From NCBI GenBank assembly GCA_002898535.1, contig BEHN01000003.1:192952-256951 (forward strand): DNA of 64,000 nucleotides, in the 5' to 3' direction. Position numbers and translations under genes: made by a program. Position 1 is the first letter of the stretch; each line of letters begins with the position of its first letter. Shown piece by piece: positions 4,302 to 32,024 of the stretch. The notes under the pieces are model-generated. The model was not told the DNA's origin and made no database searches. It worked only from the letters and a program-made list of their open reading frames with translations. This DNA is from a bacterium HR11 (lineage in GTDB: Bacteria; Acidobacteriota; HRBIN11).

Positions 4302-4740
4302 CAGAGCCGTGCGGGAGGTGAGAAGTGCGATGGGAAGCGGAAAGGGCACCTCCACGAAAGCACGATTTTTCAAACATTCGGCAGATGGGCAAGTGGGCAG
4401 ATGGGCAGATAGGCAGGTGGGCAGGTCGGCAGATGGGCAGATGGGCATTTGGCAGGTGGGCAGGTCGGCAGATAGGCAGGTGGGCAGGTCGGCAGATGGG
4501 CAGGTCGAGAGACGGGCGTCGATCCTCGGAACACCGGCCGTCATGCCGGGGGCTTCCGGAGAGAGCCCGCCGTCCTGCGGGCGTCATCTTCATGAACCGC
4601 CCGTCCTGGCCGGGTCATCCGGAGGAAGCTTGAAACATCGAGATCGCCGGACCATCGTTTTCCCTGATAGCAACCGCATTTCTCCCACCCAAACAGCTCT
4701 GATAGCAGAGCCGTTCGGTTCGTGAAAACCCGCATGGATT
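4302..4740. mobile_element. Composite MITE-like repeat element, copy A (~440 bp), with ~24-bp imperfect terminal inverted repeats and an internal heptamer array (GGCAGAT/GCAGGTG)n at 4375-4515
   Basis: Inverted, ~85-90 % similar copy at 31739-32024. Ends cagagccgtgcgggaggtgagaa / tttctcccacccaaacagctctg are inverse complements. No ORF with transposase features. Confidence 0.6.
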
Positions 4741-4746
4741 CGGCTT

Positions 4747-4828
4747 TATTGGCTCATGGGTCATAGCTCATGGCTCATAGTCCCATGAGCTATCAGCCAT
4801 GAGCTATGAGCCAATAGGGGCCAGGACC
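4747..4828. repeat. Long imperfect palindrome built from (GCTCATG)n heptamers (family 4), upstream of clpC
   Basis: ttggctcatgggtcatagctcatggctcatag | catgagctatcagccatgagctatgagccaa; related copies at 12962-13130 and 43962-44050. Confidence 0.55.
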
Positions 4829-4973
4829 CATGAGGCGATGAGCCCATCTTCATTCCTGCATCCCGTATCCCGTGGCCCCGTCAAGTCGTCGGCCGACCGC
4901 CTGGGGACGGGTCGCGTCGTGGGTTCGGGGCCCAGCGTCTATGGGTCCGTCCCCTGCTCGTCGGCCGGGCAAC

Positions 4974-5002
4974 TTGACCTCTCGACCCGATGTGGCTATG
5001 TT
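4974..5002 (+). promoter_or_regulatory. Putative sigma-70 promoter of clpC (TTGACC-17-TATGTT)
   Basis: Hexamers at 4974-4979 and 4997-5002, 33 nt before the clpC ATG. Confidence 0.3.
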
Positions 5003-5035
5003 ATCCAGGGACATGGATATTGGGAAGCGGGCATC

Positions 5036-7444
5036 ATGGCAAATCGTTACACCGAACGGGTCGTTCGTATCCTGAACTTCGCTCGGCAGGAGGCCATCGA
5101 GGCGGGTAGCAACCTCATCGAGGTCGAGCACCTGCTCTTGGGGATGTTGAGAGACATGAGCGACCCGTTGATCGTCCTGCTCCGCCGCTTTCGTTTGGAA
5201 CCCCGCGAGATGTACGCCGAGATCCAGCGCCGCATTTCCCAGTCCTCGCCCTTCTACATCAACGAGCCCCGTCTGTCTTCCCGGGCCGAGCGGGCCCTGG
5301 ACTTTGCCGTGAAAGAAGCCGAGGCGATGGGGACGAAGACGCTGGGGCCCGAGCACATCCTGCTGGGGATCCTGCGGGTCGAGGACAGCTTTGCCTGCCG
5401 GTACTTGCGCTTGCGGGGCCTGACGCCCAACCGTGTCCGGCAGGAGCTGGTCCGGATGAGCAAAAACCGGGCCCTCGTCTTGAAGAACGCCCGCTTTCCG
5501 AAGGACTCGCCGATCCTGAACGAATTCTGTCGGGACCTGACGAGCTATGCCGAGAACAACCTCCTGGACCCGCTGATCGGCCGGGAGCGGGAGGTCGAGC
5601 GGGTCATCCAGGTCTTGTGCCGGCGGACGAAGAACAATCCCGTCCTGGTCGGCGAGCCGGGCGTCGGCAAGACGGCCATCGTCGAGGGCTTGGCCCAGCG
5701 CATCGTGGCCGGTCAGGTCCCGTCGGCCCTGGCCGAGCGGCGAATCCTGAGCCTGGACCTGGCGGCCCTCGTGGCCGGCACGAAGTACCGGGGCCAGTTT
5801 GAAGAACGCATGCGGGCCCTCATCCAGGAGCTCATCGAGAACCCGGAAGTCATCCTGTTTATCGATGAGGTTCACACCCTCGTGGGCGCCGGTTCGGCTG
5901 AGGGTTCCCTGGATGCGTCCAACATCTTGAAGCCGGCCTTGTCCCGTCGGGAGATTCAGTGTATCGGGGCGACGACGCCGGCCGAGTACCGGAAGTACTT
6001 CGAGCGGGACCGGGCTCTCGAGCGGCGGTTTCAGCCGATCTACGTGCGGCCCTCGACGGAAGAGGAGTCCTATCAGATCCTGCAGGGCATCAAGGCCCAG
6101 TACGAAGAGTACCATCACGTCCATTACACCGACGAGGCCCTCCGGACGATCGTGTATCTGGCCAGCCGTTACATCACCGAGCGGGTCCTGCCCGACAAGG
6201 CCATCGACCTGATGGACGAGTGCGGGGCCTACGTCAAGATCATGGCCGAAAACGAGGAGCTCGCCCGGCGGGGCCGGCCGGCGGACGTCGATACCGAGAC
6301 GTGGCTGGAGTCGGCCGAACGGGGCGGTGGGGCTGAGGGTGCCTCGAGCGAGGGAGAGGCCGAGGAGGCCGGCGACACGGCGGTCCGCTACGTCGTCACG
6401 GGCGACGTCGTGGCTGAGGTCGTGAGCCGTTGGACGGGCATCCCGGTCCAGACTTTACAGGAAGACGAAAAAGCCCGGCTCCAGCGGCTGGAGTCCGAGC
6501 TCCAACGCTGGATCGTCTCCCAGCGACACGCCATCTCGGCCATCGTCCGGGCCATCCGGCGGTCTCGGCTGGGCCTGAAGGACCCCCACCGGCCGGTCGG
6601 GTCTTTCGTATTTTTAGGCCCGACGGGGGTCGGCAAGACGGAGGTCGCCCGTCAGCTTAGCCGGGTCTTATTCGGCTCCGAACAGGCGATGGTCCGCTTC
6701 GACATGTCCGAGTTCATGGAGCCCCACTCGGTCTCCAAGCTCATCGGAGCCCCGCCGGGCTACGTCGGCTACGAGGAGGGCGGCCTGTTGACGGAACGGA
6801 TCCGGCGGAATCCCTACTGCGTGATCCTGCTGGACGAGATCGAAAAGGCCCATCCCCAGGTGTTTAACATCCTCTTGCAGATCCTGGACGACGGGCGCCT
6901 GAGTGACGCCCTCGGCCACACCGTCGACTTCCGGAACACGATCATCATCATGACGTCGAACCTGGGCACCCGGATCATCCAGCAGAAGCCCCGGATGGGC
7001 TTCCAGGCCCACGGGGACACGGCTTCGGACTATAAGGTCATTCGGGACCGGGTGCTCCAGGAGGTCAAACAGTACTTTTCCCCCGAGTTCATCAACCGCA
7101 TCGACGACTTCATCGTCTTCTACCCGTTGGACGAAGACGACCTGGCCCGGGTGCTGGACCTGATGGTCGAGCGCCTCAACCAGGAGCTTCGGGAACGGGG
7201 GAGCGGCTACTACCTGGTCCTGACCGAGGAAGCCCGCCGGTACCTCCTGGAGGTGACCCGCAAGGAGCGCCACTTTGGCGCCCGCCCCCTCAAGCGGGCC
7301 CTCCAGACCTACGTCGAAGACCCCCTCGTCGATTTCCTCCTTTCCGTGAGTGGGCCGGACGTCCGGGGCCCCATCGAAGTGACCGTCGACGAGCGTCGGC
7401 AGATTGCCTTCCGCGTGCGGGAGATGGAGCCGGCCTCGGTGTGA
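5036..7444 (+). CDS. clpC: ATP-dependent Clp protease ATP-binding subunit ClpC/ClpA-type (two Clp_N repeats, two AAA+ modules)
   Basis: [20 protein letters not shown] (Clp_N), Walker A GEPGVGKT and second GPTGVGKT, sensor/arginine-finger regions. Start moved from 4799 to ATG 5036; the upstream 79 codons are repeat read-through. Confidence 0.85.
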
Positions 7445-7452
7445 GGTGGGTC

Positions 7453-9798
7453 ATGAACGGGCGTCGTCTGTCCGGGTGGGTCCTGGGCCTGTGGGTCCTG
7501 GGAGCCGCCCTGGGATGGGCCCAAGAGGCCCGTCGCATCGCCCAGATTCGATTTGAGGGTCTGCATCGGGTCCCGGAGAGCACGGCTCGGTACTATATCC
7601 AGAGCCGGGAGGGGGACTTGTACGACCCGGCGATGGTCCGGCAGGACTTTCGCCGTCTCTGGGCGGCCGGCTTCTTTGAGGACCTGCGGGTCGAGACGGA
7701 AGAGGGCCCCGACGGAGTCCGCCTCGTCTTTCGGGTCCAGGAGAAGCCCGTCATCGAGCAGGTCGTGTGGCCCGAAAAGGTCAAGGGCCTCCGCATCGAG
7801 GACATCCATAGCAAGATGAACGAGAAGGGCCTGACGTTGTATGACGGGGACCTCTACGACGCTTACCGGGTCCATCGGGTCGAACAGCTCATTCGGCAGA
7901 TGCTGGCCGAGAAGGGCTACCGCTTCCCCGAGGTCCGGCCCGTCCGGACGCCGCTATCGGAGACGTCGGTCCGGCTGACGTGGCAAATCGACCCCGGCGA
8001 GAGTCTCCGGGTCGGGCGGGTCGTCTTCGACGGCAATCAAGCCTTTTCAGACGATAAACTCCGGGGGGTCGTCCCCATTAAGCCTTCATCGCTGTGGGCG
8101 CGCATCACGGGTAAGGACAAGTATGACCCTCAGAAGATCGAGAAGAGTCAGGAAGCGCTTCAGAACTTTTATTATGACCACGGGTATCTGGACTTTCGGG
8201 TCGGGGAACCGAGGGTCGAGGCCTATACGGGCCGCTCCTGGTGGAACGGGGCCCCGGTCCGTCGCCTGCAGGTCGTGTTCCCTGTCAGCGAGGGCCCGCC
8301 GTACCGCATCGGGGAGGTGCGGCTGACGGGCGTCCGGGCCTTTTCCGAGGCGGACCTCCGGAAGCTTCTGCGCTTCCGGTCCGGTCAATGGTTCCGACAG
8401 AGCGCCTTTCGCAAGAGCCTCCAAGATATCCAGGCTGCCTACGGTGAGAAGGGATACCTCTTTGTCGGAATCTATCCGGACCTCCAGCCCCGCGTGGAAG
8501 ACGGGACCCACTATGTGGACGTGAATCTACAGGTCCAGGAAGGGAAGCCTCAGGTCGTGCGCCGCATCGAGTTCCAGGGCAACACGTACACCCACGACCT
8601 GGTCGTCCGCCGGGAGCTGGAGACGCAGGAGGCCCACGTCATCAATACGAAGCTCTTCCGGCGGGACCTCCAGAAGATTTACCGGATCGGGTACTTCGAC
8701 AAGGTCGAGCCCGACATCCGGCCCGTCGCTGGCCGGGACGACCAGGTCGACGTCGTCATCAAGGTCAACGAAAACAAGCGGAACCAGATATCGGCCGGTG
8801 GCGGTTATAGCCAGCTGGACGGTCTGTTCGGGCAGTTGGGCTTTGCGACCCGGAACCTCTTCGGGACGGGCAAGTCCTTCGACTTCAGCCTCCAGTACGG
8901 CAAGCGGATCAAGACGTACTACCTGTCCGTCCTGGACCCCTACTTCCTGAACAGCGACTGGCAGGTCGGCCTCAGCGTGTACAACACGTGGAACAACTAC
9001 TTCATCTATGAACGGCGGGACCGGGGCGGGAGCCTCGTCATCGGCTGGCCCCTGACGAAGGACCTGGACTTTCGGGTGGGGTACAGCTACAGTCAGATCC
9101 GGCTGGAGAACGTGAATCCCCAGCTCCTGGCCAGCGGTCTCCTGGGGATTCGCCCTGAGGACTTAGTCCGGGCCCGGGACGACAGCCGCGTGACGCCTCA
9201 GCTCATTTACAACTCGCTGGGCGACCCCCTGGACCCGACGGAGGGGATTTACGCTACGGCGGCGGTGGCCTATGCCGGCGGACCCCTGGGCGGGAATGTC
9301 TACATCGTGGCACCCTCATTCCGGTGGCGGCAGTACTTCAAGGTCAACCGATGGTCCCATCGATTCGCTTACAACGTCGAGCTCGGCTGGGTCACTGGGT
9401 ACGGCGGCCGGCCCGTGCCCTTCTACGAGCGGTTCTTCCTGGGGGGCGACTTCACGATCCGGGGCTACGACTTCCGGACGGTCGGGCCCATCGACCCCCA
9501 GGTCAGTACCCGTTATACCGTCGGTGGGACGAAGTACGCCCTCTTTAATCTGGAGTACATCGTGCCCGTAGGGGAGTCGCCCCTTCGGTTGGTGGCGTTC
9601 TGGGACGGCGGCAACGCCTACGCCCCGGGGGAGGCCCTCGACCCCCTCAAGTTCCGTTTTTCGACGGGCCTGGAGCTCCGGATCGTGATCCCGATGCTCA
9701 TGCAACCGATCCGGTTTATCTTTGCCCGGAACTGGAATCGGGGCCCCGTTCAGGCCCCGGCGTGGAATTTCCGTTTCGGCTTCGGCCTCAACTTTTGA
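7453..9798 (+). CDS. bamA: Outer-membrane protein assembly factor BamA (POTRA repeats plus Omp85 barrel)
   Basis: Signal peptide, POTRA-like repeats, C-terminal barrel ending ...NFRFGFGLNF. ATG 7453 lies 4 nt after GAGGTGG; the alternative GTG 7441 overlaps the clpC stop. Confidence 0.85.
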   Translation: MNGRRLSGWVLGLWVLGAALGWAQEARRIAQIRFEGLHRVPESTARYYIQSREGDLYDPAMVRQDFRRLWAAGFFEDLRVETEEGPDGVRLVFRVQEKPVIEQVVWPEKVKGLRIEDIHSKMNEKGLTLYDGDLYDAYRVHRVEQLIRQMLAEKGYRFPEVRPVRTPLSETSVRLTWQIDPGESLRVGRVVFDGNQAFSDDKLRGVVPIKPSSLWARITGKDKYDPQKIEKSQEALQNFYYDHGYLDFRVGEPRVEAYTGRSWWNGAPVRRLQVVFPVSEGPPYRIGEVRLTGVRAFSEADLRKLLRFRSGQWFRQSAFRKSLQDIQAAYGEKGYLFVGIYPDLQPRVEDGTHYVDVNLQVQEGKPQVVRRIEFQGNTYTHDLVVRRELETQEAHVINTKLFRRDLQKIYRIGYFDKVEPDIRPVAGRDDQVDVVIKVNENKRNQISAGGGYSQLDGLFGQLGFATRNLFGTGKSFDFSLQYGKRIKTYYLSVLDPYFLNSDWQVGLSVYNTWNNYFIYERRDRGGSLVIGWPLTKDLDFRVGYSYSQIRLENVNPQLLASGLLGIRPEDLVRARDDSRVTPQLIYNSLGDPLDPTEGIYATAAVAYAGGPLGGNVYIVAPSFRWRQYFKVNRWSHRFAYNVELGWVTGYGGRPVPFYERFFLGGDFTIRGYDFRTVGPIDPQVSTRYTVGGTKYALFNLEYIVPVGESPLRLVAFWDGGNAYAPGEALDPLKFRFSTGLELRIVIPMLMQPIRFIFARNWNRGPVQAPAWNFRFGFGLNF

Positions 9799-9841
9799 GG
9801 CCCGACTTTAAGGGAGGGGGCGGTGGGGTCGCCCCAGCCCG

Positions 9842-9870
9842 TTGGGGAGGAGATGAACCTGCTATATAAT
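9842..9870 (+). promoter_or_regulatory. Putative sigma-70 promoter of the skp-fabZ-lpxA operon (TTGGGG-17-TATAAT)
   Basis: ttgggg 9842-9847, 17-nt spacer, tataat 9865-9870, about 125 nt before the skp ATG. Confidence 0.3.
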
Positions 9871-9996
9871 GGGAGGCCCCTATTTTGTCCCTGGCGGGTG
9901 AATCCCAACCGGCGTGCGAAAGGAGGGGGTCATCCCTGCCGGGACGGCGGTCCTGGGCGGTAGACCCAGGTCGATTTTGTCCAGGAGGTGATTCGT

Positions 9997-10569
9997 ATGT
10001 ATACCGCAGAGAAGCTCCGAGGGGCATCTATCGTTTTATTCTTACTCCTGTCGTCGTGGCTTCTGGCCCAACAGCCGGCGCCGCCGCCCGCCCCGACGCC
10101 CCCGGGCGGCACGCGGGTCGCCGTCATCGACCTCCAGCGGATCGTCCAGGAGTCCGTCGTCGGCCAGCGGCTCCAGAAGGAGATCCAGGCCTTTCAGGAG
10201 AAGCAGCAACAGGAGCTCCGGAAGAAGGAGACCGAGCTCCGTCAGCTCAATCAGAAGCTCCAGGAACAGGCGGCCGTGCTGGCCCCGGACGCCCTCCGGG
10301 ACCTGCAGGCCAAGCTTCGGGACAAACAGCGGGAGATCGACCGATTTCGGGAGGACGCCGTCGCCGAACTTCAGGAGAAGATCGAGGACGCCCAGGCTCA
10401 ACTGGAGAATCAGGTCCGGCCCATCATCGCCGAGGTCGCCCGGGAAAAGGGCTTCGACGTCGTCTTGAACCCGGCGGCCGTCGTGTTTGCCAGCCGGGCG
10501 GTGGACATCACCGACGACGTCATTAAGCGATTTAACGCCAAGGCCGCCCAGCCGACCAAGACTCCGTGA
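9997..10569 (+). CDS. skp: Periplasmic chaperone Skp/OmpH
   Basis: Signal peptide then coiled-coil Q/E/K-rich region (...QAFQEKQQQELRKKETELRQLNQKLQEQ...). AGGAGGTGA lies 6 nt before ATG 9997. Confidence 0.75.
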   Translation: MYTAEKLRGASIVLFLLLSSWLLAQQPAPPPAPTPPGGTRVAVIDLQRIVQESVVGQRLQKEIQAFQEKQQQELRKKETELRQLNQKLQEQAAVLAPDALRDLQAKLRDKQREIDRFREDAVAELQEKIEDAQAQLENQVRPIIAEVAREKGFDVVLNPAAVVFASRAVDITDDVIKRFNAKAAQPTKTP

Positions 10570-10584
10570 CCGGGGTAGGCTTCG

Positions 10585-11079
10585 ATGTGGGTCAAGCCGG
10601 AAGTCACGGCCGCGTGGGTCGCCTTGGACACCAATCAGGTCCAGGCCCTCCTACCCCACCGGTATCCCTTCCTGATGGTCGACCGGGCATTTCTACACCC
10701 GGACCGATGGGAGGCCCTGGGGTTGAAGGGCGTGACCTACAATGAGCCCTTCTTCCCGGGCCATTTCCCGCAGGAGCCGATTCTGCCAGGGGTCCTGATG
10801 GTCGAGGCCATCGCCCAAGTGGCGGCCCTGACGGTCTTGTGGCGTCACCCCGAGGCCCGGCATCGACCCATTTACTTATTGGGGATCGAGCAGGCCCGGT
10901 TCCGGCAGAAAGTCGTGCCGGGCCATCTCTTAGAAGTTCACGCATGGCTGGAGCGCCGGCGGGGCGTATTTGTGTGGTTCAAGGGCGTCATATGGGTCGG
11001 GGATCAAGTCGTCGCCGAGGCCCGTCTCTCGACGGGTACGCCGGTTATCGCTGAGGGGAGGGATGGGAGTGAGGATTGA
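10585..11079 (+). CDS. fabZ: 3-hydroxyacyl-ACP dehydratase FabZ
   Basis: [10 protein letters not shown]...[18 protein letters not shown] hot-dog fold signature. Confidence 0.85.
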
Positions 11080-11842: not shown

Positions 11843-12816
11843 AAATTCGTGTGGCCGTCATCGGCGTCGGGTACCTGGGTCAACACCACGCCCGGGTCTT
11901 TGCCGGCTTGCCGGACGTCGAACTGCGGTACGTCGTGGATATCATTCCCGAGCGGGCGTATACCATCGCCGAGCAGTATGGCGCCATTCCCTTGGAGGAC
12001 TACCGGGCCGTCCCCGTCTCGGAGATCGACGCCGTCAGCATCGTGACCCCGACGACGACCCACTACGAGATCGCCCTTCACTTCCTTCGGTGTGGCGTGG
12101 CGACTTTCGTGGAGAAGCCCCTCACGATGACCTCCCAGCAGGCCCTCCACTTGGTCGAGGAATCCCAGCGGACCGAGACGCCCCTCTTCGTCGGGCACAT
12201 CGAGCGCTTTAACCCCGTGGGGTCCCGGTTTCCCGTCCTCCGAGACGCCGAGTCGCCGGTCTTCATCGAGATTCATCGGGTCCACCCCTTCGTCCCCCGG
12301 GGGACCGACGTCGACATCGTCATGGACCTCATGATCCACGACCTGGACCTCCTGCTGGCCCAAGTCGGCCGGCCGCCTCAGATTCTGGATGCCGTCGGCA
12401 TCCCTGTCGTCACCCACCAGATCGACGCCGCCAGCGTGCGCCTCCAATGGGACCACCTCCGGGTCAACCTCGTCGCCAGTCGGGTCAGCCACATGCACAC
12501 CCGGCGGTGGATGATCTTCGCCGCCGGCCGGTACGTCTCGTTGGATTTCCTCCACCGACAGGTCACCCAAATCCAGATGGACGAGACCCACCCGGGTCAC
12601 CTGGTCATCCAGGACGTCCGATGCGACAGTCCGAAAGAACTCCTATGGATGGAGCTTCAAGCCTTTGCGCAGGCTGTCCGACGGGGCTACGCCGTGCCGC
12701 CCCTGGCGACCGGTCCCGAGGGCCTGGCGGCCATCCGGCTGGCCGAGCAGATCCGGGCCTCGATGGAACAGGTCCGCCATCCGGACCTGACGCCCTGGGT
12801 CATGACGGCCGTATAG
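11839..12816 (+). CDS. Gfo/Idh/MocA-family NAD-dependent oxidoreductase, operonic with lpxA (GnnA-like candidate)
   Basis: MKIRVAVIGVGYLGQHHARVF... Rossmann N-terminus. ATG overlaps the lpxA stop (caATGAaa). Confidence 0.7.
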   Translation: MKIRVAVIGVGYLGQHHARVFAGLPDVELRYVVDIIPERAYTIAEQYGAIPLEDYRAVPVSEIDAVSIVTPTTTHYEIALHFLRCGVATFVEKPLTMTSQQALHLVEESQRTETPLFVGHIERFNPVGSRFPVLRDAESPVFIEIHRVHPFVPRGTDVDIVMDLMIHDLDLLLAQVGRPPQILDAVGIPVVTHQIDAASVRLQWDHLRVNLVASRVSHMHTRRWMIFAAGRYVSLDFLHRQVTQIQMDETHPGHLVIQDVRCDSPKELLWMELQAFAQAVRRGYAVPPLATGPEGLAAIRLAEQIRASMEQVRHPDLTPWVMTAV

Positions 12817-12895
12817 CAGAGCCGTTCGGTTCGTGAGAAGGGCGTCGGGACGGCCCTCTCCATCGCCCGGGAAGCACGATGTTTCAAAGGGATGA
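12817..12895 (+). repeat. Family-1 intergenic element (CAGAGCCGTTCGGTTCGTGAGAA core plus GGGAAGCACGATGTTTCAA module)
   Basis: Starts on the stop codon of the oxidoreductase. Same core at 4706, 25989(-), 31739, 35626, 35870, 41754, 43123, 43665(-), 43864, 44085(-), 49275(-). Confidence 0.6.
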
Positions 12896-12961
12896 AGGGA
12901 CGGAGTGACGAAGGAACGCAGTGACGAGCCACGGCCTTGGGCCGGTCGGCCGATAGACCCC

Positions 12962-13130
12962 TTCGCTCATATCAGCTCATGGCTCATGGCTCATAGCTCA
13001 TGGGCCATAGGAGCCCATGGGTCATAGCTCATGGCCCCTATTGGCTCATAGCTCATAGTCCCATGAGCCATCAGCCATGAGCCATGAGCCAATATGAGCT
13101 ATGAGCCATGAGCCAATAGGGGCCACGAGC
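12962..13130. repeat. Family-4 (GCTCATG)n long palindrome
   Basis: Tandem gctcatg/gagccat units symmetric about ctcatagtcccatgag. Confidence 0.55.
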
Positions 13131-17814: not shown

Positions 17815-17885
17815 GGGCAGGATACAAGACGCGAGATGCGGGATACAGGATGCAGGATGCAAGATGCAGGATGCAAGATGAGGGA
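17815..17885 (-). repeat. Family-3 (CYTGCAT)n array, oriented with thiD and ending ~20 nt before its start
   Basis: Minus-strand reading cttgcat cctgcat cttgcat cctgcat cctgtat cccgcat ... Confidence 0.55.
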
Positions 17886-18125
17886 GTCCCAGAGAGGTCA
17901 CAGACCATGGACTATAGACCATAGACCCTATCTGGAAGATCCGTCCCTCCCGTCTTGAGTCGATGAGACTCGGACAGCCCTAAACCCCGTCAAGGTCTAT
18001 AGTCCGTGGTCTATGGTCTGGGGTCTCTTCTCTGGGACCTCCGGAGCCTGCATCTTGTATCCCGCATCCTGCATCTTGTATCTTATACCGCCTGTGTCGG
18101 CAAGCTTCCTCGAGTCGGAACGACG

Positions 18126-23112: not shown

Positions 23113-23231
23113 GATCTCATATAAATCCGACCATAGACCCCAGACCATAGACCGGCTGGGGCCCAGGGGGTCGAGGGTCCATGGTCTGGGGTCGGATGTC
23201 GAGGGTCCGGTCCCGTCGGATTTATAAGACC
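23113..23231. mobile_element. Family-2 MITE-like element: TIR TCTCATATAAATCCGAC...GTCGGATTTATAAGA flanking (GGTCTAT/GGACCAT)n heptamers
   Basis: Near-identical architecture at 43319-43433 and 49289-49410. Confidence 0.55.
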
Positions 23232-24471: not shown

Positions 24472-24679
24472 ACCATGGACCATGGACCTTGGACTGAGGA
24501 CGGCATTTTCGGCATCCAGCGGATGGGGGGGACGCCGTCCTCTTCCCAGGGTCGGTTAGGCCGAGGCCATCCAGAAGCTCACGGACCGAAGGGCTATGCT
24601 CAACCGCCTACAACCGGTCTGCAGCCTAAGGTCCATGGTCCGTACACTTTTCACTTCCCGGACAGTTCTGCTATGTTAG

Positions 24680-25657
<978 letters not shown>

Positions 25658-25918
25658 GGCCATCCTGGGGGTCGGGCCCAGGAGATCCACACCCGTCCAC
25701 CACGACGCCCACGCCAGCCGCAATCGGATTCGGGCCTTCCAGCCCCGTGTGCGCTCGATCCTGGCGGCGATGGGGCCCTGTGCTTTGGATACGCCCGGGT
25801 CGGGGACGTCGCCGTGGCCCGGCCCGAGAAGGCGCTCTTGGACGAATTCTGGGCGGCCGAGCGGCTGGGCGTCGCCGTCCTGCGCGTCGCGGCGGCCTAT
25901 ACCTCCGCCGTCGGCCAC

Positions 25919-25989
25919 TTGGAAACATCGTGCTTCCCAGGGGATGGGCAAGGTCGTTCCGACGCCATTCTCACGAACCGAAGGGCTCT
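25919..25989 (-). repeat. Family-1 element (inverted orientation)
   Basis: gaaacatcgtgcttccc...ttctcacgaaccgaagggctctg. Confidence 0.55.
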
Positions 25990-26094
25990 GATAATTTCTA
26001 AGGCCTCTCTATCCTGACCCCGAACCCCTATTTCCACAGTCTTTCCACACGTTTTCCACATCTTGGGGGTCTTTTTTCAAAGAACCCCAATATC

Positions 26095-26123
26095 TTGACA
26101 CGTGGGTCTTTCAAGGGTATAAT
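26095..26123 (+). promoter_or_regulatory. Consensus sigma-70 promoter of nrdJ (TTGACA-17-TATAAT)
   Basis: ttgaca 26095-26100, 17-nt spacer cgtgggtctttcaaggg, tataat 26118-26123; about 150-nt leader to ATG 26279. Confidence 0.55.
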
Positions 26124-26278
26124 GGGGTCCGTCGGGTTGGGACGATGAACATGACCCATGAGTTTGGGGATATAAGATTTGGTGGCGAGGCGATAGGTCA
26201 CCATCCCTGCGGGTGGTGAATAGCGAGGGGTGATCCTGCGGAGCGATTCGCCACCCGCCATTATAGGAGGAGGGTCCT

Positions 26279-29200
26279 ATGAAGGACATGGAGGGCGTTG
26301 TCGTTTCCCGTGGCAACGGGACGGGTGGGGGCGTGGAGGAACGTCCGTGGGTCCCGGAGGTACCGGTGCCGGCGGACCTCTCTCGCCGGGAGCCCCTAAT
26401 TCGACGGTTTTATACCCAGCCGGGGCAGGACCCCTTTGAGACCGTCGAGTACGAGCTTCGGACGGTCCGGATCATGGACCCTGACGGAAAGGTCGTCTTC
26501 GAGATGAACGACGTCGAGGTCCCCAAGACGTGGTCCCAGTTGGCGACAGACATCGTGGCGTCCAAGTACTTCCGCAAGGCCGGCGTGCCCGGCCGGGGGC
26601 ACGAGTGGAGCGTCCGGCAGGTCATCCGGCGGGTCGTCCACACGATTCGTCTCGCCGGGGAGGAGCAGGGCGGTTACTTTGCGACGCCCGAGGAGGCCCA
26701 GGCCTTTGAGGACGAGCTGACATACATGCTTTTGCATCAGATCGGGGCCTTCAACTCGCCCGTCTGGTTCAACTGCGGTCTATGGCACGCCTATCGCATC
26801 GACGGGAGCGGGGGGAACTGGTACTGGAACGGGCGCACGAACCAGGTCGAGATGACCCAGACGGCTTACGAGCATCCCCAGTGTTCGGCCTGCTTCATCC
26901 AGTCCGTCGAAGACGACCTCATGTCCATTTTCGAGCTCGTCAAGAACGAGGCCCGTGTTTTTAAATATGGGTCCGGCACAGGGACTAATTATTCTAGAAT
27001 AAGAGGGCATATGGAAAAGCTGTCGGGCGGGGGGACGTCCTCGGGGCTGATGTCCTTCCTCGAAGTCTTCGACCGGGCCGCCGGTGCCACCAAGTCGGGC
27101 GGGACGACCCGCCGGGCCGCCAAGATGGTCATCCTCGACGTCGACCACCCCGAGATCGAGGACTTCATCCTCTGGAAGGTCCGGGAAGAAGAAAAGGCCT
27201 GGGCCCTCATTCGGGCCGGCTACCCGGCCGACTTCAACGGCGAGGCCTACCGGACCGTCTCGGGTCAGAATTCGAACAACTCCGTCCGGATCCCCGACGA
27301 GTTCATGCACGCCTACCTCAACGACGGGACGTGGTCGACCCGCCTCCGGACGACGGGCGAGGTCTGGAAGACCTACCGGGCCCGGGACCTCATGCGGATG
27401 ATCGCCTATGCGGCCTGGCGGTGCGCCGACCCCGGCGTCCAGTTTGACACGACCATCAACCGATGGAACCCCTGTCCGAACACGGGTCGCATCAACGCCA
27501 CGAATCCCTGCAGTGAGTTCATCTTCCTGGACGACACGGCCTGCAACCTGGCGTCGTTGAACCTGACGAAGTTTCTCCGGGACGACGGGACCTTCGACGT
27601 CGAGGCCTACCGGCACGCCATCCGGGTCTTCTTCCTGGCCCAGGAGATCCTCGTCGACTTTTCGTCGTACCCGACCCGGAAGATCGCCGAGAACAGTCAC
27701 CGCCTCCGACCCCTCGGCCTCGGCTATGCGAACCTCGGGACGCTCCTGATGCTCCTGGGAATTCCTTACGACAGTGACGAGGCCCGGGCCTGGGCCGGCG
27801 CCCTGACGGCCATCCTCACAGGTGAGGCCTACACCATGTCGGCCCGGATGGCCGCCCGTAAGGGCCCCTTTGAGGAGTTTTACAAGAACCGAGAGCCCTT
27901 CCTGCGGGTCATCCAGATGCACCGCCAGGCGGCTTACGGCATCGACCCGACGAAGGCCCCGGCGGACCTCGTCGAGGAAGCCCGCCGGGCGTGGGACACG
28001 GCCCTCGAGCTGGGTCGGGTCTACGGCTACCGCAACGCCCAGGCGACGGTCCTCGCTCCGACAGGCACGATCGGGTTACTCCTCGATTGTGACACGACGG
28101 GCATCGAACCGGACTTTGCCCTCGTCAAGTTCAAGAAGTTGGCCGGCGGCGGTTCCTTCAAGATCGTCAATCGGGCCGTCCCCGAGGCCCTTCGGCGGCT
28201 GGGTTATACGGAGGCCCAGGTCCAGGACATGCTGAAGTACCTCCTGGGCCACCTGACCTTCGAGGGAGCGCCCCACATCAACCGGGAGACGCTTCGGGCC
28301 AAAGGCTTCACCGACGAGGAGATCGCCCAACTTGAGGCCCGGCTCCCCCAGGTCCTGGACTTAGACGGCCTGTTCGTGCCCGGCATCGTCCCGGAGGCGA
28401 CGCTCCAGCGGCTGGGCTTTACGCCTGAGCAGTATCGGGCCCCCGGCTTTCGGCTCCTCGGGGCCCTCGGATGGACGCCTCACCAGATCCAGGAGGCCAA
28501 CGACTGGATCTGCGGCCGCCAGACCCTGGAGGGCGCCCCTCACCTGCGGCCCGAGCACCTGCCCGTCTTCGACTGCGCCAACAAGTGCGGCCCTTACGGC
28601 CAGCGGTACATCGAGCCGATGGGCCACGTCCGTATGCTGGCGGCCGTCCAGCCGTTCCTAAGTGGTGGAATCAGTAAGACGGTCAACCTGCCCAACGAGG
28701 CGACCGTCGAGGACATCGAGCGGATCTACGTCGAGGCCTGGCGGATGGGCATCAAGTGTATCTCCGTCTACCGAGACGGCTGTAAGGCCTCCCAGCCCCT
28801 GAACACGGGCCGCAAGGCCGAGGAGCCGGCCCCGGCCCGAACCGAAGTCCCGGCGGCCTCGACGCCCCAGGTCGAGGTCCCGACGTCGGAGTTCCCCCGC
28901 CTTCAGCGTCGGCGACTTCCGAAGAAGCGGTACGGCTTCACCCAGGAAGCCCGCGTGGCCGGCCAGAAGATCTACCTCCGGACGGGCGAATACGAAGACG
29001 GGACGCTCGGCGAAATCTTCATCGACATGCACAAGGAGGGCGCCGCCTTCCGGAGCATGCTGAACTGCTTCGCCATCGCCATCTCCCTGGGTCTCCAGTA
29101 CGGCGTCCCCCTCGAAGAGTTCGTCGACGCCTTCGTCTTCACGCGGTTCGAGCCCCAGGGCCCCGTCGAGGGCCATCCCCACGTGAAGTTCGCCACGTCG

Positions 29201-29527
29201 ATCATCGATTACATCTTTCGGGTCCTCGGCATCGAGTACCTCAAGCGGTACGACCTGGCCCACGTCCCGCCCGAGGAGGCCTTCAAGGAAGACTTGGGCG
29301 CCCGGTCCCCGGACCTCGAAGAAGAAGCCTCAAAAGAGACGTCCCCCTCGACGGGAGGCGTCTCAAAGGCTGGTCCGAGCGCGGCCGTCCATGGGGCCGC
29401 CATCAGCCAGCAGGCCCGGTCCTTCATGATGGACGCCCCGGCCTGCGACAAGTGCGGCCACATCACGGTCCGGAACGGTTCTTGCTACCGATGTCTGAAC
29501 TGCGGGAACTCGATGGGATGCTCATGA
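26279..29527 (+). CDS. nrdJ: Adenosylcobalamin-dependent (class II) ribonucleoside-diphosphate/triphosphate reductase
   Basis: NPCSEFIFLDDTACNLASLNL active-site region and C-terminal Cys-rich zinc ribbon CDKCGH...CYRCLNCGNSMGC; GGAGGAGGG before the ATG. Confidence 0.9.
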   Translation: MKDMEGVVVSRGNGTGGGVEERPWVPEVPVPADLSRREPLIRRFYTQPGQDPFETVEYELRTVRIMDPDGKVVFEMNDVEVPKTWSQLATDIVASKYFRKAGVPGRGHEWSVRQVIRRVVHTIRLAGEEQGGYFATPEEAQAFEDELTYMLLHQIGAFNSPVWFNCGLWHAYRIDGSGGNWYWNGRTNQVEMTQTAYEHPQCSACFIQSVEDDLMSIFELVKNEARVFKYGSGTGTNYSRIRGHMEKLSGGGTSSGLMSFLEVFDRAAGATKSGGTTRRAAKMVILDVDHPEIEDFILWKVREEEKAWALIRAGYPADFNGEAYRTVSGQNSNNSVRIPDEFMHAYLNDGTWSTRLRTTGEVWKTYRARDLMRMIAYAAWRCADPGVQFDTTINRWNPCPNTGRINATNPCSEFIFLDDTACNLASLNLTKFLRDDGTFDVEAYRHAIRVFFLAQEILVDFSSYPTRKIAENSHRLRPLGLGYANLGTLLMLLGIPYDSDEARAWAGALTAILTGEAYTMSARMAARKGPFEEFYKNREPFLRVIQMHRQAAYGIDPTKAPADLVEEARRAWDTALELGRVYGYRNAQATVLAPTGTIGLLLDCDTTGIEPDFALVKFKKLAGGGSFKIVNRAVPEALRRLGYTEAQVQDMLKYLLGHLTFEGAPHINRETLRAKGFTDEEIAQLEARLPQVLDLDGLFVPGIVPEATLQRLGFTPEQYRAPGFRLLGALGWTPHQIQEANDWICGRQTLEGAPHLRPEHLPVFDCANKCGPYGQRYIEPMGHVRMLAAVQPFLSGGISKTVNLPNEATVEDIERIYVEAWRMGIKCISVYRDGCKASQPLNTGRKAEEPAPARTEVPAASTPQVEVPTSEFPRLQRRRLPKKRYGFTQEARVAGQKIYLRTGEYEDGTLGEIFIDMHKEGAAFRSMLNCFAIAISLGLQYGVPLEEFVDAFVFTRFEPQGPVEGHPHVKFATSIIDYIFRVLGIEYLKRYDLAHVPPEEAFKEDLGARSPDLEEEASKETSPSTGGVSKAGPSAAVHGAAISQQARSFMMDAPACDKCGHITVRNGSCYRCLNCGNSMGCS

Positions 29528-29539
29528 GGACCACGAGAT

Positions 29540-29597
29540 GCAAACCCGATGTGTGGGTTTTGCGACGCCCGCATGACTGCGGGCGCTCGGTGTTTTC
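29540..29597 (+). terminator. Putative intrinsic terminator(s) after nrdJ
   Basis: Hairpin gcaaacccgatgtgtgggttttgc, then gcccgca-tgac-tgcgggc followed by gctcggTGTTTT. Confidence 0.35.
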
Positions 29598-30100
29598 CGA
29601 CGCCGCCATGACGGACGGCGCCAGGATGGAAGACGCCGGGATGACGCCCGGCGTCCCGCAGATCCTCTTACGGACGGTACGACCTTGGGCCCCAGCGCCC
29701 GGGACCTGCCTCTACCGCCCTCATTCACACCCGCTTCGCCACCCCCCTGAAGCCCCCTGACGGGTGGGCCCGCTTCTCTTCCCCCGGGCGGGCCCGCTCC
29801 TCTTCCTTTCCGGCCGTTCGGGAGTTCGGCAGTTCGGGAATTCGGGAGTTTGGGAATTTGGGCTTGACCCAGGTGGCGGCCCGCGTTCTCTGGGTGTATA
29901 CATATTGCACGATGTATGGTTTTAAGCCAGGCCGACCCGAGGAAGGTCGGGTAATCCCCGGCGTTTTGGTTTGGCATAGGAATTGTATACAGACCCCGCT
30001 ACGTATTGGATAGGCCCCGTATCCCTCCCCTCCGTCGTACGCCGGACCGAGGTACCGACTCGCATCGACTTCATGGGCAGTCCTTCTATATTCCAGGAGG

Positions 30101-31474
30101 TTGGACATGCGACGTTGGATAGGCGTCACCCTCATGGTCTTGGGGCTTGTCCCCTGGATGACGGGGTGCCAGTCAGCCCGACAGGTCGCCCTGCCGGATA
30201 ACGGGCCGACGACGGGCTTGGTCACCTTGAAAGGTCAGATTCTGCAGTGGGTCAACGAACAGGGCCAGTCCCTGGTCCCTTCGGGATCGGTGACGGTCCG
30301 AGAGACCCAAACGCAATCGAACATTAACCCCGACGGCTCCTTTCGTCTTCCCCTGCCCCAGACGGGGACGTTTCATCTGGTCTTCCGTCACACGCGGGGC
30401 TCGGAGGCCGAAGTCGAGGTGCAGGTCGAGGACTCCGGCGAGGTCGAGGTCCGCATCATGATCCAGGGCCGGGTCGGCGATCTGGTCGAAAAGATCCACA
30501 TCCACAACGGCAAGGCCGACCTCATGGGGAGGGTCGCGAACCCGAGCACCGGCCCGAATCAATTCACGCTCCAGGTGTTCGATCAGACCTATACGATCCA
30601 GTACGACAGTAGCACGAACTGGATCAACACGAGTCCGGCTCAGTTGAAGCCCGGCGACCCCCTGGAGGTGAAGGGTCAGTATACCGGGAATTCCACGGTG
30701 CTGGCCCGAAAGATTCGACTCCATGCCCCGCAGGGCCCGAAGCCGCCGGAATTTGAGGCGAAGGGGACGGTGGCGGGTCTCAGCGGGAATCCCTGCGGCG
30801 GTTCAGCTTCCTTCACCCTTCAGGTTCAGGGGGGCGGGTCGGTGACGATCCTGGTCGACGTACAAACCCGTTTTGAGCGGGGCACGTGCGCGAACCTGGT
30901 GGACGGGGCGTTCGTCGAAGTTAAGTCCCGACGGCCGGCGACCGGCGGCGGCTGGATTGCCGATGAAATCCAGTTTGAGCGTCAGGAAGCCGAGTTTGAG
31001 GCGAAGGGGACGGTGTCGAATCTCACCGGGAATCCGTGTGCCGGCTCTGCTTCCTTTATCCTTCAGGTTCAGGGGGGCGGGTCGGTGACGATCCTGGTCG
31101 ATGCCCAGACGCGGTTTAAGAAGGGGTCCTGCGGGAATCTGGTCAATGGGGCCTTCGTGGAGGTCAAGTCCCGGCGGCCGGCGGCGAATCCGCCGGGGGC
31201 GTGGATCGCCGACGAGATCGAGTTTGAGGGGCAGGAAGCCGAGTTTGAGGCGAAGGGGACGGTGACGAATGCGGCGGTAACCTGCAGTCCGACGCCGTCG
31301 GGGTCGTTCGTGTTGAATCATAACGGGGGTTCGACGACGATCCTGGTCGATGCCCAGACCCGCTTTGAGGACGGCACGTGTGCGAACTTGCAAAATGGGG
31401 TTCGTGTCGAGGTCAAGTCCCGGCGGCCTCAGAACGGCGCCTGGATCGCCGACAAGATTGAATTTGAAGACTAA
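30101..31474 (+). CDS. Lipoprotein with four DUF5666-like ~85-aa repeats
   Basis: Lipobox LVPWMTGC; repeats EFEAKGTV..GNPC.GSASF.LQVQGGGSVTILVD.QTRF..G.C.NL..GAFVEVKSRRP, copies 2 and 3 nearly identical at DNA level; AGGAGGT before the ATG. Confidence 0.65.
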   Translation: MDMRRWIGVTLMVLGLVPWMTGCQSARQVALPDNGPTTGLVTLKGQILQWVNEQGQSLVPSGSVTVRETQTQSNINPDGSFRLPLPQTGTFHLVFRHTRGSEAEVEVQVEDSGEVEVRIMIQGRVGDLVEKIHIHNGKADLMGRVANPSTGPNQFTLQVFDQTYTIQYDSSTNWINTSPAQLKPGDPLEVKGQYTGNSTVLARKIRLHAPQGPKPPEFEAKGTVAGLSGNPCGGSASFTLQVQGGGSVTILVDVQTRFERGTCANLVDGAFVEVKSRRPATGGGWIADEIQFERQEAEFEAKGTVSNLTGNPCAGSASFILQVQGGGSVTILVDAQTRFKKGSCGNLVNGAFVEVKSRRPAANPPGAWIADEIEFEGQEAEFEAKGTVTNAAVTCSPTPSGSFVLNHNGGSTTILVDAQTRFEDGTCANLQNGVRVEVKSRRPQNGAWIADKIEFED

Positions 31475-31528
31475 CGGGGGGCCCGGCCAGGGCACCACCC
31501 GTGACGACTGCCGGACGGCTGGTGTTCG

Positions 31529-31558
31529 GTAGGGGCGGGTTTGGAATCCCGCCCCTAC
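31529..31558. terminator. Perfect 11-bp-stem hairpin after the lipoprotein gene
   Basis: gtaggggcggg-tttggaat-cccgcccctac; no T-run. Confidence 0.3.
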
Positions 31559-31738
31559 GGACGCCGCCGTCATCGGTGGTGTGAGGAGACGGGAGCTCGG
31601 GACCCCGCCGGATATTGAGTCGGGGTGACCTATGTGTCGCCCTACCCAATAGGGCCATACGTGATGGGCTATGAGCCCATCTTCATCCCCCATCCCGCCT
31701 CACGGGGTAACCCCAAGGGTTGTCCCCTACCTCCCTAT

Positions 31739-32024
31739 CAGAGCCGTTCGGCTGGGAGAAATGGTGCTCCCATCCGGGAAAACGATGGTCCGGCGATCTC
31801 GATTTTTCAAGCTTCCTCCGGATGAACCGGCCAGGACGGGCGGTTTATGAGGATGACGCCCGCAGGACGGCCGGTGTTCCGAGGATAGACGCCCGTCGCC
31901 CGACCGGCCCATCGGCCGACCTGCCGACTGCCCATCTGCCGAATGCTTGAAACAGCGTGCTTTCGCGGAGGTGCCCTTTCCACTCTCCATCTCACTTCTC
32001 ACCTCCCGAACCGCTCTGCTATTT
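31739..32024. mobile_element. Composite MITE-like element, copy B (inverted relative to copy A at 4302-4740), with a shorter heptamer array
   Basis: Its reverse complement aligns end-to-end with 4302-4705 (same TIRs, same internal gaagcttgaaacatcgagatcgccggaccatcgttttccc block). Confidence 0.6.

Follow-up and report, generated by a model that had tools for sequence, protein, structure and literature searches.

Bacterial MITEs are small, non-coding elements with terminal inverted repeats (TIRs) and a short target-site duplication (TSD), which occur in multiple copies in intergenic DNA. The BOX elements of Streptococcus pneumoniae carry boxA and boxC ends and an internal unit of ~45 bp in variable copy number, and we know of no description of a 4-bp NTAN duplication for them. 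REP/BIME repeats are imperfect palindromes of 20-40 nt with a GTAG/CGTC head and a link to RAYT genes, and the foldback (FB) elements of Drosophila and other eukaryotes are kilobase-sized. IS200/IS605-type PATEs have no TIRs and no duplication, contain subterminal hairpins and insert 3' of a fixed tetra- or pentanucleotide, in MITEs of the IS630/Tc1-mariner type a TA duplication directly abuts the TIR, and the IS5 group has G-rich ends and a YTAR target with a 4-bp duplication. IS701 generates a duplication of exactly 4 bp and has the terminal consensus ---YACT-Y--YR, and ISH3, with ends CRGT and a 4-5 bp duplication, has been reported only from archaea (PMC2266710). A function has been proposed for the intergenic heptamer arrays, single or as inverted pairs, of Xanthomonas and Nostoc (PMC4692102).

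The repeats considered here, copies A and B, lie in inverted orientation 27 kb apart in a 64-kb stretch of DNA, analysed as a whole and hereafter called the window, of 'bacterium HR11', an uncultured thermophilic MAG of the 'Ca. Fischerbacteria'/Acidobacteriota with a genome of 66% GC. They very probably go back to two separate insertion events of a non-autonomous DNA transposon (MITE) from a superfamily that occupies the intergenic DNA of HR11 and its relatives. Their classification as MITEs is supported by small size, absence of coding capacity, TIRs, a TSD of fixed length, filled vs. empty sites and dispersed copies.

Structure and insertion sites of copies A and B

Copy A (4302-4701, plus strand, 400 bp) and copy B (31739-32018, minus strand, 280 bp), delimited by their alignment to each other, inverted-repeat blocks and ATAG flanks, share 89.6% identity over 280 aligned columns in a global alignment (251 matches, 29 mismatches, 120 gap columns). 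A repeat search of the window returned three inverted blocks, namely 4298-4391 vs. 31929-32022 (94 nt, 89%), 4480-4557 vs. 31851-31928 (78 nt, 86%) and 4566-4705 vs. 31735-31874 (140 nt, 90%). At a divergence of ~10%, neither was recently copied from the other. The original prediction had aligned 4302-4740 over its whole length with the reverse complement of 31739-32024: the homology holds, but in copy A it stops at 4705 and not at 4740, since the sequence from 4706 onward is the terminus of another, adjacent family member.

The difference in length between the copies consists of 88 nt of a period-8 tandem array and a 32-nt indel. The array (4380-4505, plus strand; GGCAGRTS, TRF consensus GGCAGGTG, 15.9 copies) coincides with a gap in the A/B alignment and lies on one arm only in both copies. 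Its unit is therefore an octamer and not the heptamer (GGCAGAT/GCAGGTG)n initially proposed, and the surplus of units in copy A, estimated at ~100 bp, measures 88 nt. The short insert expected in addition was found at 4533-4564 (plus strand), in the alignment with copy B, with the direct repeat GCCGTC at its bounds; as 32 nt is not a multiple of three, it shifts any reading frame. The TIRs are imperfect, as anticipated, but measure ~27 nt rather than ~24 nt in the A/B alignment, and at 60-75 nt from both ends there is a further conserved block in subterminal position, CGATkTTTCAAGC. The left end module of copy A, of type E (4302-4378, plus strand), comprises the terminus CAGAGCCGTGCGGGAGGTGAGAAGTG and the subterminal GAAAGCACGATTTTTCAA; it was detected by nhmmer (4299-4381, E=1.6e-8) and by motif searches, and is conserved in L031, from another species. 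The right end module (4623-4701, minus strand), recognised by nhmmer (4704-4623, minus strand) and TIR alignment, carries the inverted terminus CAGAGCTGTTTGGGTGGGAGAAATG plus CGATGTTTCAAGC. The termini of copy B pair with each other in the DNA fold. A direct repeat ATAG borders copy A on both sides (4298-4301 and 4702-4705), as it does copy B when read on the minus strand (32019-32022 and 31735-31738); the similarity between the two copies ends exactly at these flanks on all four sides.

The terminal CAG of copy A (4302) is 9 nt from the Shine-Dalgarno (SD) core GGAGG (4288-4292) and 21 nt from the ATG (4280-4278) of a metB-like gene (3138-4280, minus strand; cystathionine gamma-synthase-like, Pfam Cys_Met_Meta_PP, E=1e-119). 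Copy A had been predicted to supply the whole upstream region of this gene, with the TIR ending 16 nt before the ribosome-binding site (RBS); it does cut metB off from all sequence above its SD, while the distance has to be corrected to 9 nt from the SD core. Copy B, for its part, abuts the 3' end of queC (32027-32659, minus strand; Pfam QueC) as predicted, its terminus being 8 nt past the stop codon (32027-32029), and it is inserted into an intergenic array of heptamer/octamer type. The QueC translated from the ATG start matches the QueC of 'bacterium HR11' at 100% identity, while exact protein searches with the GTG-start version and with a GHMP kinase ORF gave no match. A sigma-70-like clpC promoter (TTGACC-17-TATGTT; 4974-5002, plus strand), identified by a promoter scan, is conserved in the element-free relatives L043, L045 and L046, and the insertions therefore lie upstream of it. 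Apart from this pre-existing promoter, neither a sigma-70-like promoter nor an intrinsic terminator was found in or around either copy, and the TTGAAA conserved in outward orientation lacks a -10 partner 16-18 nt away.

Both copies are absent from related genomes with the same gene order, whose flanking genes have 85-89% nucleotide identity. At site B, L038 and L041 keep the synteny LeuRS-PD40-QueC><DUF5666 and are ~85% identical to the window at the nucleotide level; the alignment breaks exactly at 32021|31734, with 25 nt there vs. 286 nt in the window. A single ATAG stands in these genomes where HR11 has ATAG-element-ATAG, and HR11 aligns across the junction once the element and one ATAG are removed. 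The empty site has small octamer-unit indels on its flanks. At site A, L043-L046, with a MetB 95% identical, lack copy A and have a clpC-metB spacer of 173 bp, with 90 nt against 670 nt in the window, this spacer being too diverged for a precise empty site. The empty sites suggested as a check by the original prediction are thus found for both copies, the precise one (single ATAG) at the queC site alone. Related MAG loci were unusable as orthologous sites, since tblastn revealed no shared synteny with the window ORFs. As the relatives without elements at both sites keep the same genes, the elements are dispensable there.

The superfamily in the window and in other genomes

Within the window, nhmmer detected 18 end modules with the common terminus CAGAGCCGTTCGGTTCGTGAGAA, and a 23-nt terminal motif occurs 10 times at ≤3 mismatches vs. 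0.01 expected, which excludes chance. The A/B subtype is represented by only two copies in the window, plus one in L031. It had been foreseen that the pair might be the only copies and lack TSDs, a situation indicative of a segmental remnant; instead, both have ATAG/ATAG duplications and their termini are common to at least 16 other end modules of the window. Superfamily units measure 69-400 bp and have the head CAGRGCC.

The member adjacent to copy A is partial (4706-4816, plus strand), consists of a type-A terminus and a palindromic GCTCATG heptamer array, has the ATAG at 4702-4705 in common with copy A and, by inverted repeats, is 93-95% matched to 43965-44085. The latter is part of a canonical 223-bp member (43863-44085, plus strand) with a type-G end, palindromic heptamer arrays and an inverted type-A end, which forms one long hairpin (DNA fold -76.2 kcal/mol, z=-11.7); foldback structure is found in this member and not in copies A (z=-0.4) and B (z=-4.1). 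A type-G end module (12817-12888, plus strand), with the flank ATAG, directly follows the TAG stop (12814-12816) of the upstream oxidoreductase gene, and there are two mini-elements, one of 75 bp (43123-43197, plus strand), made up solely of one G-type and one E-type terminus, and one of 99 bp (41754-41852, plus strand) with two diverged termini. The LeuRS-PD40 spacer (35627-35948, plus strand) contains two end modules (35627-35708 and 35868-35948) with octamer/heptamer arrays. On the minus strand, nhmmer recovered a solo type-G module (25915-25994, also by motif search), a type-A module (49199-49277) with octamer arrays adjoining at 49132-49193 (TRF), a type-G module (43586-43667) with a GGCAGATG-type octamer array on its inner side and a diverged module (24532-24601). 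Several array unit types coexist in HR11, and many arrays sit between MITE termini.

A scan of 185,579 species-representative genomes retrieved the terminus almost only from one related Acidobacteriota MAG, and in MITE-sized contexts only. About 60 termini are present in loci of the related MAG JZ-1.bins.94, and 81 in the window and related loci together. End modules of ~80 nt are conserved across species: L031 has both ends of A/B type and a different interior, and conserved ends with a free interior look like a transposase substrate. In Logan, the contigs of this strain are broken within elements, as expected for multi-copy repeats. A metagenome scan with the E-type end pattern gave one unrelated chance match only (L036), viral contigs gave 0 matches to the termini, and a literature search on MITEs with tandem repeats in Acidobacteria yielded nothing relevant. 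The termini (CAGRGCCGTTCGG...) match no family that could be identified, and the elements form a new MITE superfamily with foldback-like relatives.

As originally predicted, the elements contain no transposase ORF: the ORFs across A and B have no conserved frame, being in different frames before and after the 32-nt indel, Pfam gave no match in the elements, and a protein-database search returned no homologue of the spurious ORF of copy B. No transposase, including RAYT/Y1, was found among the tested ORFs of the window either, and no autonomous element with matching termini in the TIR-bounded intervals checked (~200 kb of the related MAG). The intervals between distant plus and minus termini that could have enclosed a transposase contained only housekeeping genes, namely hypC/hypD (from the translation) and, by Pfam, those for trigger factor, ClpP, a sigma factor, MnmE and ATP synthase.

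Mode of spread and alternative explanations

Flanks of 27 paired elements read NTAN on either side, and the target is a palindromic 4-bp [not G]-T-A-[not C], duplicated, which is ATAG for A and B. Insertion would occur by staggered cleavage of this target, probably through DDE-type cut-and-paste by a transposase encoded elsewhere, with the elements thus being presumably mobilised in trans. Each element end comprises a TIR of ~23-27 nt (CAGRGCCGTTCGG...GAGAA), a spacer of ~35-40 nt and the conserved subterminal box CGATkTTTCAAG, most simply read as putative transposase-binding sites. The interior is unconstrained and carries 7-8-nt tandem arrays that presumably grow and shrink by slippage, which would account for the 88 nt by which the arrays of A and B differ; an origin of the same kind would apply to the 32-nt indel, with its GCCGTC repeats. 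TA-containing targets in a 66% GC genome probably cluster at stop codons and at TAAGGAGG-type RBSs, and this would account for the position of copy A at the metB SD and of copy B at the queC stop.

The restriction of the termini to MITE-sized contexts across 185,579 species genomes is also what underlies a different reading, in which the superfamily is an orphan, mobilised by a transposase that is without these termini or of unrecognised type, and the subfamily-specific 7-8-nt arrays, rather than being passive microsatellites, derive from the transposition or repair mechanism of the element itself or were exapted by the host (as G-quadruplexes or hairpins in a 65-70 °C thermophile). We consider this unlikely; if true, the elements would be a bacterial counterpart of the eukaryotic foldback elements, remodelling most promoter-proximal DNA.

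It is decidedly improbable that the elements propagate in the manner of REP/BIME or ERIC intergenic repeats, or were adopted by the host, and persist through a function, their transposon-like features being secondary. Under this explanation they might act as hairpin terminators, mRNA stabilisers, promoter modules near RBSs or G-quadruplex octamer arrays at 65-70 °C, and several observations are in agreement with it: the canonical members form very stable hairpins (z=-11.7), ~16 of the 22 apparent spacers of at least 100 bp carry ends and/or arrays, 7 of 77 termini are within ~35 nt of a start codon plus SD vs. 3% at random positions, copy A isolates metB from the sequence above its SD, and heptamer arrays have been proposed as functional in Xanthomonas and Nostoc (PMC4692102). 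However, no sigma-70-like promoter or intrinsic terminator was found in or around either copy except the pre-existing one of clpC, copy A as a whole is not structured beyond chance (z=-0.4), relatives without elements at both sites retain the same genes, and the duplicated 4-bp targets point to spread by transposition.

Parents of IS200/IS605 type (PATEs, with a Y1 HUH transposase) or IS630/Tc1 type (MITEs with a TA-specific DDE transposase), towards which the original prediction had directed the search, are highly improbable, although the flanks centre on TA (T at -3 in 20 and A at -2 in 18 of 27), the termini start with CAG as in Tc1 and the elements are hairpin-rich. The 4-bp NTAN duplication argues against both. 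PATEs are without TIRs or duplication, whereas the HR11 elements have both and thus do not belong with them. An IS630/Tc1 origin would give a TA duplication with complementary outer bases, but such complementarity was observed in only 3 of 27 elements, so that a TA duplication plus one element base is rejected. The outer flank bases match instead as direct repeats at 30 of 54 positions vs. 17.4 in shuffles (p=0.0002), an excess indicating a 4-bp duplication and not the TA duplication of IS630/Tc1, and perfect 4-bp repeats number 5 vs. 1.4 expected (p=0.008). On both sides one variable base separates TA from CAG, at odds with the abutting TA of IS630/Tc1-mariner MITEs, and it behaves as part of the 4-bp direct repeat; moreover, neighbouring elements are spaced by exactly 4 bp (4702-4705 in the window; 3948-3951 in L009).

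The conservation of the ~80-nt end modules across species could also suggest genes for a structured non-coding RNA family, an explanation to which we give very little credence: with Rfam 15 no family reached the gathering threshold and only generic hairpin (miRNA) matches appeared below it, RNAalifold on 24 type-G ends gave -5.8 kcal/mol, a covariation term of -0.39 and one compensatory pair, on which a conserved fold of the end module was rejected, and the orientation of the end modules relative to neighbouring genes is inconsistent. Finally, an origin of A and B as remnants of an inversion or a segmental inverted duplication, as their inverted orientation at 27 kb and the presence of only two copies of the exact subtype in the window might indicate, is practically untenable and refuted by flank and orthologous-site data, because the similarity stops exactly at ATAG on four sides with no longer flanking homology found, each site on its own is empty in relatives that keep the gene order, the same ends surround a different interior in another species (L031) and the termini are common to dozens of other elements.

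Significance and relation to known systems

As mobile DNA, the pair is well documented but of an ordinary kind, and current understanding is not overturned. Nonetheless, the elements explain the fragmented assemblies of the HR11 lineage, since Logan contigs break inside them, as well as gene callers running ORFs through spacers (e.g., the 1005-aa PD40 call) and the wholly different spacers of strains with 98-99% identical genes. For a thermophile lineage without cultures they provide a marker system that is dated and polymorphic, and also a natural test of how metB copes with a 400-bp insertion 9 nt from its SD and with its former upstream region cut off. What they add to work on mobile DNA is the definition of a 4-bp [not G]TA[not C] target together with an ~80-nt composite end.

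The HR11 elements resemble the known bacterial MITEs (Correia/NEMIS of Neisseria, Nezha and other cyanobacterial MITEs, Chunjie of Geobacter) in their small size (69-400 bp), absence of coding sequence, TIRs and short TSD, and in their many intergenic copies, often near gene starts or stops and varying in presence between related genomes. They differ from them in the composite ~80-nt end modules, in the interiors dominated by subfamily-specific 7-8-nt arrays and in that no parent IS was found in the window or the related loci examined. Compared with described insertion sequences, the TA-centred palindromic 4-bp target fits the IS5 group, whose G-rich ends the HR11 termini do not fit; the exact 4-bp duplication fits IS701, with whose consensus the terminus CAG(A/G)GCC disagrees; and the CAG(A/G) terminus loosely resembles the CRGT of ISH3, which is archaeal only. 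With units of 69-400 bp, a CAGRGCC head and no RAYT/Y1 in the tested window ORFs, the elements are not REP/BIME. The canonical members (e.g., 43863-44085) are, like FB elements, almost wholly a long inverted repeat with arms of short tandem repeats in variable number, while FB elements are eukaryotic, kilobase-sized and have other termini. The modular build of BOX, with conserved ends around an internal module of variable copy number, is found in HR11 as well, with 7-8 nt in place of the ~45-bp unit and unrelated sequence. The cyanobacterial STRR and the GGGAATC repeats of Xanthomonas and Nostoc (PMC4692102) are, like the HR11 arrays, G-rich intergenic tandems of 7-8 nt near ORF ends, single or in inverted pairs, and one HR11 unit (CGGGAATC/CGGGAATT, 43487-43506) nearly equals GGGAATC; in contrast to those repeats, several unit types occur side by side in HR11, and many of its arrays are embedded between MITE termini.

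Copies A and B and the superfamily to which they belong

Positions 4298-4705 (+) and 31735-32022 (-) were read and aligned and proved homologous from end to end, and global alignment of copy A (4302-4701) with copy B (31739-32018) gave 89.6% identity (251 matching columns, 29 mismatched and 120 gapped), bearing out the original prediction of inverted homologous copies; a repeat search returned three inverted blocks of 94, 78 and 140 nt with 86-90% identity. At about 10% divergence, neither was copied from the other recently. Copy A had been drawn as far as 4740, but homology ends at 4705, and 4706-4740 is part of an adjoining element. The gaps come from the tandem array (88 nt) and from a single 32-nt indel (4533-4564) bordered by GCCGTC direct repeats, so that the surplus array and short insert expected in copy A are both present, the former at 88 nt instead of about 100 bp. 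The array itself, first described as heptameric, has a period of 8 according to Tandem Repeats Finder (4380-4505, 15.9 copies of the unit GGCAGGTG). Slippage or microhomology, acting as usual in an interior free of constraint, probably produced both the difference in array length and the indel. An imperfect TIR was correctly anticipated, its length being about 27 nt and not 24, and a second conserved box, CGATkTTTCAAGC, lies 60-75 nt inward at both ends. Because the array sits on one arm only, the fold of copy A is not structured (z=-0.4) and that of copy B moderately so (z=-4.1).

The superfamily has the termini CAGRGCCGTTCGG. With ≤3 mismatches allowed, its terminal 23-mer, CAGAGCCGTTCGGTTCGTGAGAA, has 10 occurrences in the window vs. 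0.01 expected, and a profile built from 76 ends located 18 end modules (TIR, spacer and subterminal box) within the 64 kb. They are of type G (...GAGAATGGCGTCGG...CGCCCGGGAAGCACGAT), type A (...GAAAACCCGCATGGATTCGGC...) or type E (...GGGAGGTGAGAAGTGCGATGG), the last being used by copies A and B, and all share one layout: TIR, spacer of ~35-40 nt, TTTCAAG box and then, inward, tandem arrays of 7-8 nt, whose unit varies by subfamily (GGCAGATG, GCTCATG, CGTGACG, GGTGTTGG, GGCAGTTC, GATACGG). Typical complete members are near-perfect palindromes of 215-260 bp; the element at 43859-44088 folds at -76 kcal/mol (z=-11.7), and mini-elements of 69-99 bp are also present. About 16 of the 22 spacers of at least 100 bp apparent in the window, on an approximate gene map, carry ends and/or arrays. 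Logan contigs (DRR101361, DRR101362) that are 100% identical to 31989-35937 stop inside copy B and a further element, the kind of break that multi-copy repeats cause in assembly.

Other repeats share these spacers. A second, unrelated MITE-like family has three copies (23121-23230, 43320-43440 and 49284-49410), with inverted termini (G)TCTCATAAATCCGAC around palindromic GACCATA/GGTCTAT heptamer arrays. Two long palindromes (17817-18085 and 60152-60355), built as (GCAGGAT)n (GACCATG)n ... (GGTCTAT)n (ATCCTGC)n, consist of heptamer arrays only and lack CAGAGCC termini; arrays therefore also occur independently of MITE ends. A 784-bp composite at 43002-43785 (repeat pair I1) has 169-nt inverted arms with 91% identity that reach ~120 nt beyond two family termini, and encloses a mini-element, a second-family copy and octamer arrays; part of its arm sequence recurs at 49050-49130, and nesting, or membership of a larger element, is the probable explanation. 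The octamer units CGGGAATC/CGGGAATT (43469-43506, 49156-49193) are a near match to the GGGAATC heptamer, a G-quadruplex-forming intergenic repeat reported in Xanthomonas and Nostoc (PMC4692102). Gene callers that carried the frame on across a family element plus an octamer array (35626-35853; contig L001, 85-3102) stretched a PD40-repeat protein to 1005 aa, with the extended N-terminus '...PSADLPTCLSAECPKNR...ILTNRTALL', where 'TNRTALL' is the translated MITE terminus, which recurs in spurious ORF extensions. Coding repeats were found as well: a 300-nt direct repeat with 99% identity in an unannotated 580-aa ORF (62227-62526, 62767-63066), a 225-nt tandem repeat in a beta-helix/SLH protein (50709-51197) and a 243-nt tandem repeat corresponding to repeated DUF5666 domains (30752-31270).

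Target sites and insertion positions

Target-site duplications, which had been named as a check on mobility, are present at both copies, each having ATAG on either side. Both termini could be recognised in 27 elements, and in these the tetranucleotide outside CAG...CTG has the form N-T-A-N at either end. As direct repeats, its outer bases agree at 30 of 54 positions, where 100,000 shuffles gave 17.4 (p=0.0002); a perfect 4-bp repeat is seen in five pairs, where 1.4 were expected (p=0.008). Duplication of TA together with one element-encoded base was rejected, as it predicts complementary outer bases, found in only 3 of the 27 pairs. Since C never stands at position -1 and G is rare at +1, the target can be written as the palindrome [not G]TA[not C]. 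Neighbouring elements are separated by exactly one NTAN tetranucleotide (4702-4705; locus L009, 3948-3951). The TA core notwithstanding, these flanks argue against the IS630/Tc1 or IS200/IS605 parent that had been suggested: IS630/Tc1 elements duplicate TA and not 4 bp, while IS200/IS605 elements have neither duplication nor TIR. A 4-bp duplication fits the IS5 group, IS701 and ISH3 (PMC2266710), yet the termini show no convincing match to any of them.

Copy A lies between a Cys/Met-metabolism PLP enzyme gene (metB-like; 3138-4280, -) and a ClpC-type AAA+ protein gene (5036-7444, +), and copy B between genes for a DUF5666 protein (30101-31474, +) and QueC (32027-32659, -), all assigned by Pfam. 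A distance of 9 nt separates the terminus of copy A (CAG at 4302) from the metB SD core GGAGG (4288-4292), less than the 16 nt first estimated, and 21 nt separate it from the ATG; copy B, correctly placed against the 3' end of queC, begins 8 nt past its stop codon. Outer flanks end in a stop triplet in 35 of 77 cases, and 7 of 77 termini fall within ~35 nt of a start codon and SD, vs. 3% for random positions. With 66% GC in the genome, TA-centred tetranucleotides would be concentrated at TAA/TAG stops and TAAGGAGG-type SD contexts, and we infer that this target preference explains why the elements adjoin stop codons and ribosome-binding sites. At 12813-12817, the TAG stop of a GFO/IDH/MocA oxidoreductase gene (ends 12816) is inside the ATAG directly flanking an element terminus at 12817, and this element may have supplied or preserved the stop.

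Unoccupied sites and distribution in other genomes

Empty sites had been named as a further check, and relatives were found without copy B and without copy A, with a precise junction at the queC site only. QueC homologues with 82% identity (P0003) occur on four Logan contigs (L038-L041) in the same synteny, LeuRS-PD40-QueC><DUF5666, where the match to the window is interrupted at precisely 32021|31734 and 25 nt replace 286 nt: relatives read ...GGCGAATAG|GAAGGTAGG..., HR11 ...GCAAATAG[element]ATAGGGAGGTAGG.... Deleting the element with one ATAG from HR11 lets the alignment run through the junction save for small octamer-unit indels, and the comparison points to insertion of copy B into a short octamer array already present. 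The last queC codons and the post-stop sequence are themselves GGCAGATA-type octamer units (GGGCAGATAGGCAAATAG; 32019-32034), and relatives carry two to three more units at the queC end (L038, 5625-5690), the array overlapping the end of the coding sequence. JGI and Logan contigs (L043-L046) encode MetB homologues with 95% identity (P0049), in the arrangement clpC<-173 bp->metB; 90 nt of their spacer correspond to 670 nt in the window, and copy A, the adjacent half-element and ~140 nt more are missing. The clpC promoter TTGACC-17-TATGTT (4974-5002) is conserved there, the spacer being too diverged for a precise empty site. Identity of 85-89% between relatives and HR11 in flanking genes indicates that both insertions are younger than their split. 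In the LeuRS-PD40 spacer (35600-36050), two strains with identical QueC protein and flanks 97-99% identical have wholly different spacers (L041, 980-1400; L039, 1360-1462), one with two family end modules and arrays, the other only with GGTCTATGG-type arrays; the intergenic repeats turn over fast.

'Bacterium HR11', whose QueC in the NCBI entry is 100% identical to that of the window, is a thermophilic MAG assigned to 'Ca. Fischerbacteria' that came from a bioreactor at 65-70 °C (Kato et al., 2018; PMC5877337). A degenerate pattern covering all three end types matched 33 stretches among one genome per species for 185,579 species; HR11 lies outside these representatives, and the matches include no motif copy from the window itself, which has ten. 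Acidobacteriota bacterium JZ-1.bins.94.201901, a fragmented, low-coverage MAG from a hot-spring sample and the only rich relative, accounted for 28 matches. A Blastocatellia MAG (L031) contributed one element, in which both A/B-type ends are conserved (~85 and 75 nt) around an unrelated interior without octamer array, an appearance suggestive of a transposase substrate. The remaining four, isolated in unrelated MAGs, were not counted as family; three have no end-module sequence and match the terminal 23-mer only at the limit of 5 mismatches. A scan of viral contigs gave no match, and a metagenome scan one, judged to be chance.

Origin of the elements

A transposase ORF had been reported absent, and none was found in the elements or among the sizeable window ORFs tested, all of which are housekeeping genes. 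ORFs crossing copies A and B have no Pfam match and no homologue among 5.8 billion proteins, and their frame is broken by the 32-nt indel. Distant plus and minus termini in the MAG loci were considered as transposase borders and rejected, as the genes inside are not transposases; they are hypC/hypD (from translation) and those for trigger factor, ClpP, sigma factor, MnmE and ATP synthase (Pfam).

It is very probable that copies A and B arose as two insertions of a MITE belonging to a superfamily, hitherto undescribed, of the thermophilic Acidobacteriota/'Fischerbacteria' lineage; a putative transposase that cuts [not G]TA[not C] with a 4-bp stagger would be the mobilising enzyme. The competing explanations are unlikely even when pooled: a functional exapted repeat, a segmental duplication, IS630- or IS605-type elements, or an ncRNA family. 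No sigma-70-like promoter or intrinsic terminator was found within copy A or B; Rfam returned nothing at the gathering score and, below it, only generic hairpin (miRNA) noise, while RNAalifold on 24 type-G ends gave no conserved fold (-5.8 kcal/mol, one compensatory pair).

MITEs are a well-known kind of mobile DNA. The superfamily, its termini and its 4-bp target appear to be undescribed, literature searches having returned no relevant find. It is unusual in bacteria for members to be foldback-like and to carry 7-8-nt arrays specific to a subfamily; the closest parallels are the foldback elements of eukaryotes and, in Xanthomonas and Nostoc, intergenic arrays of heptamers.
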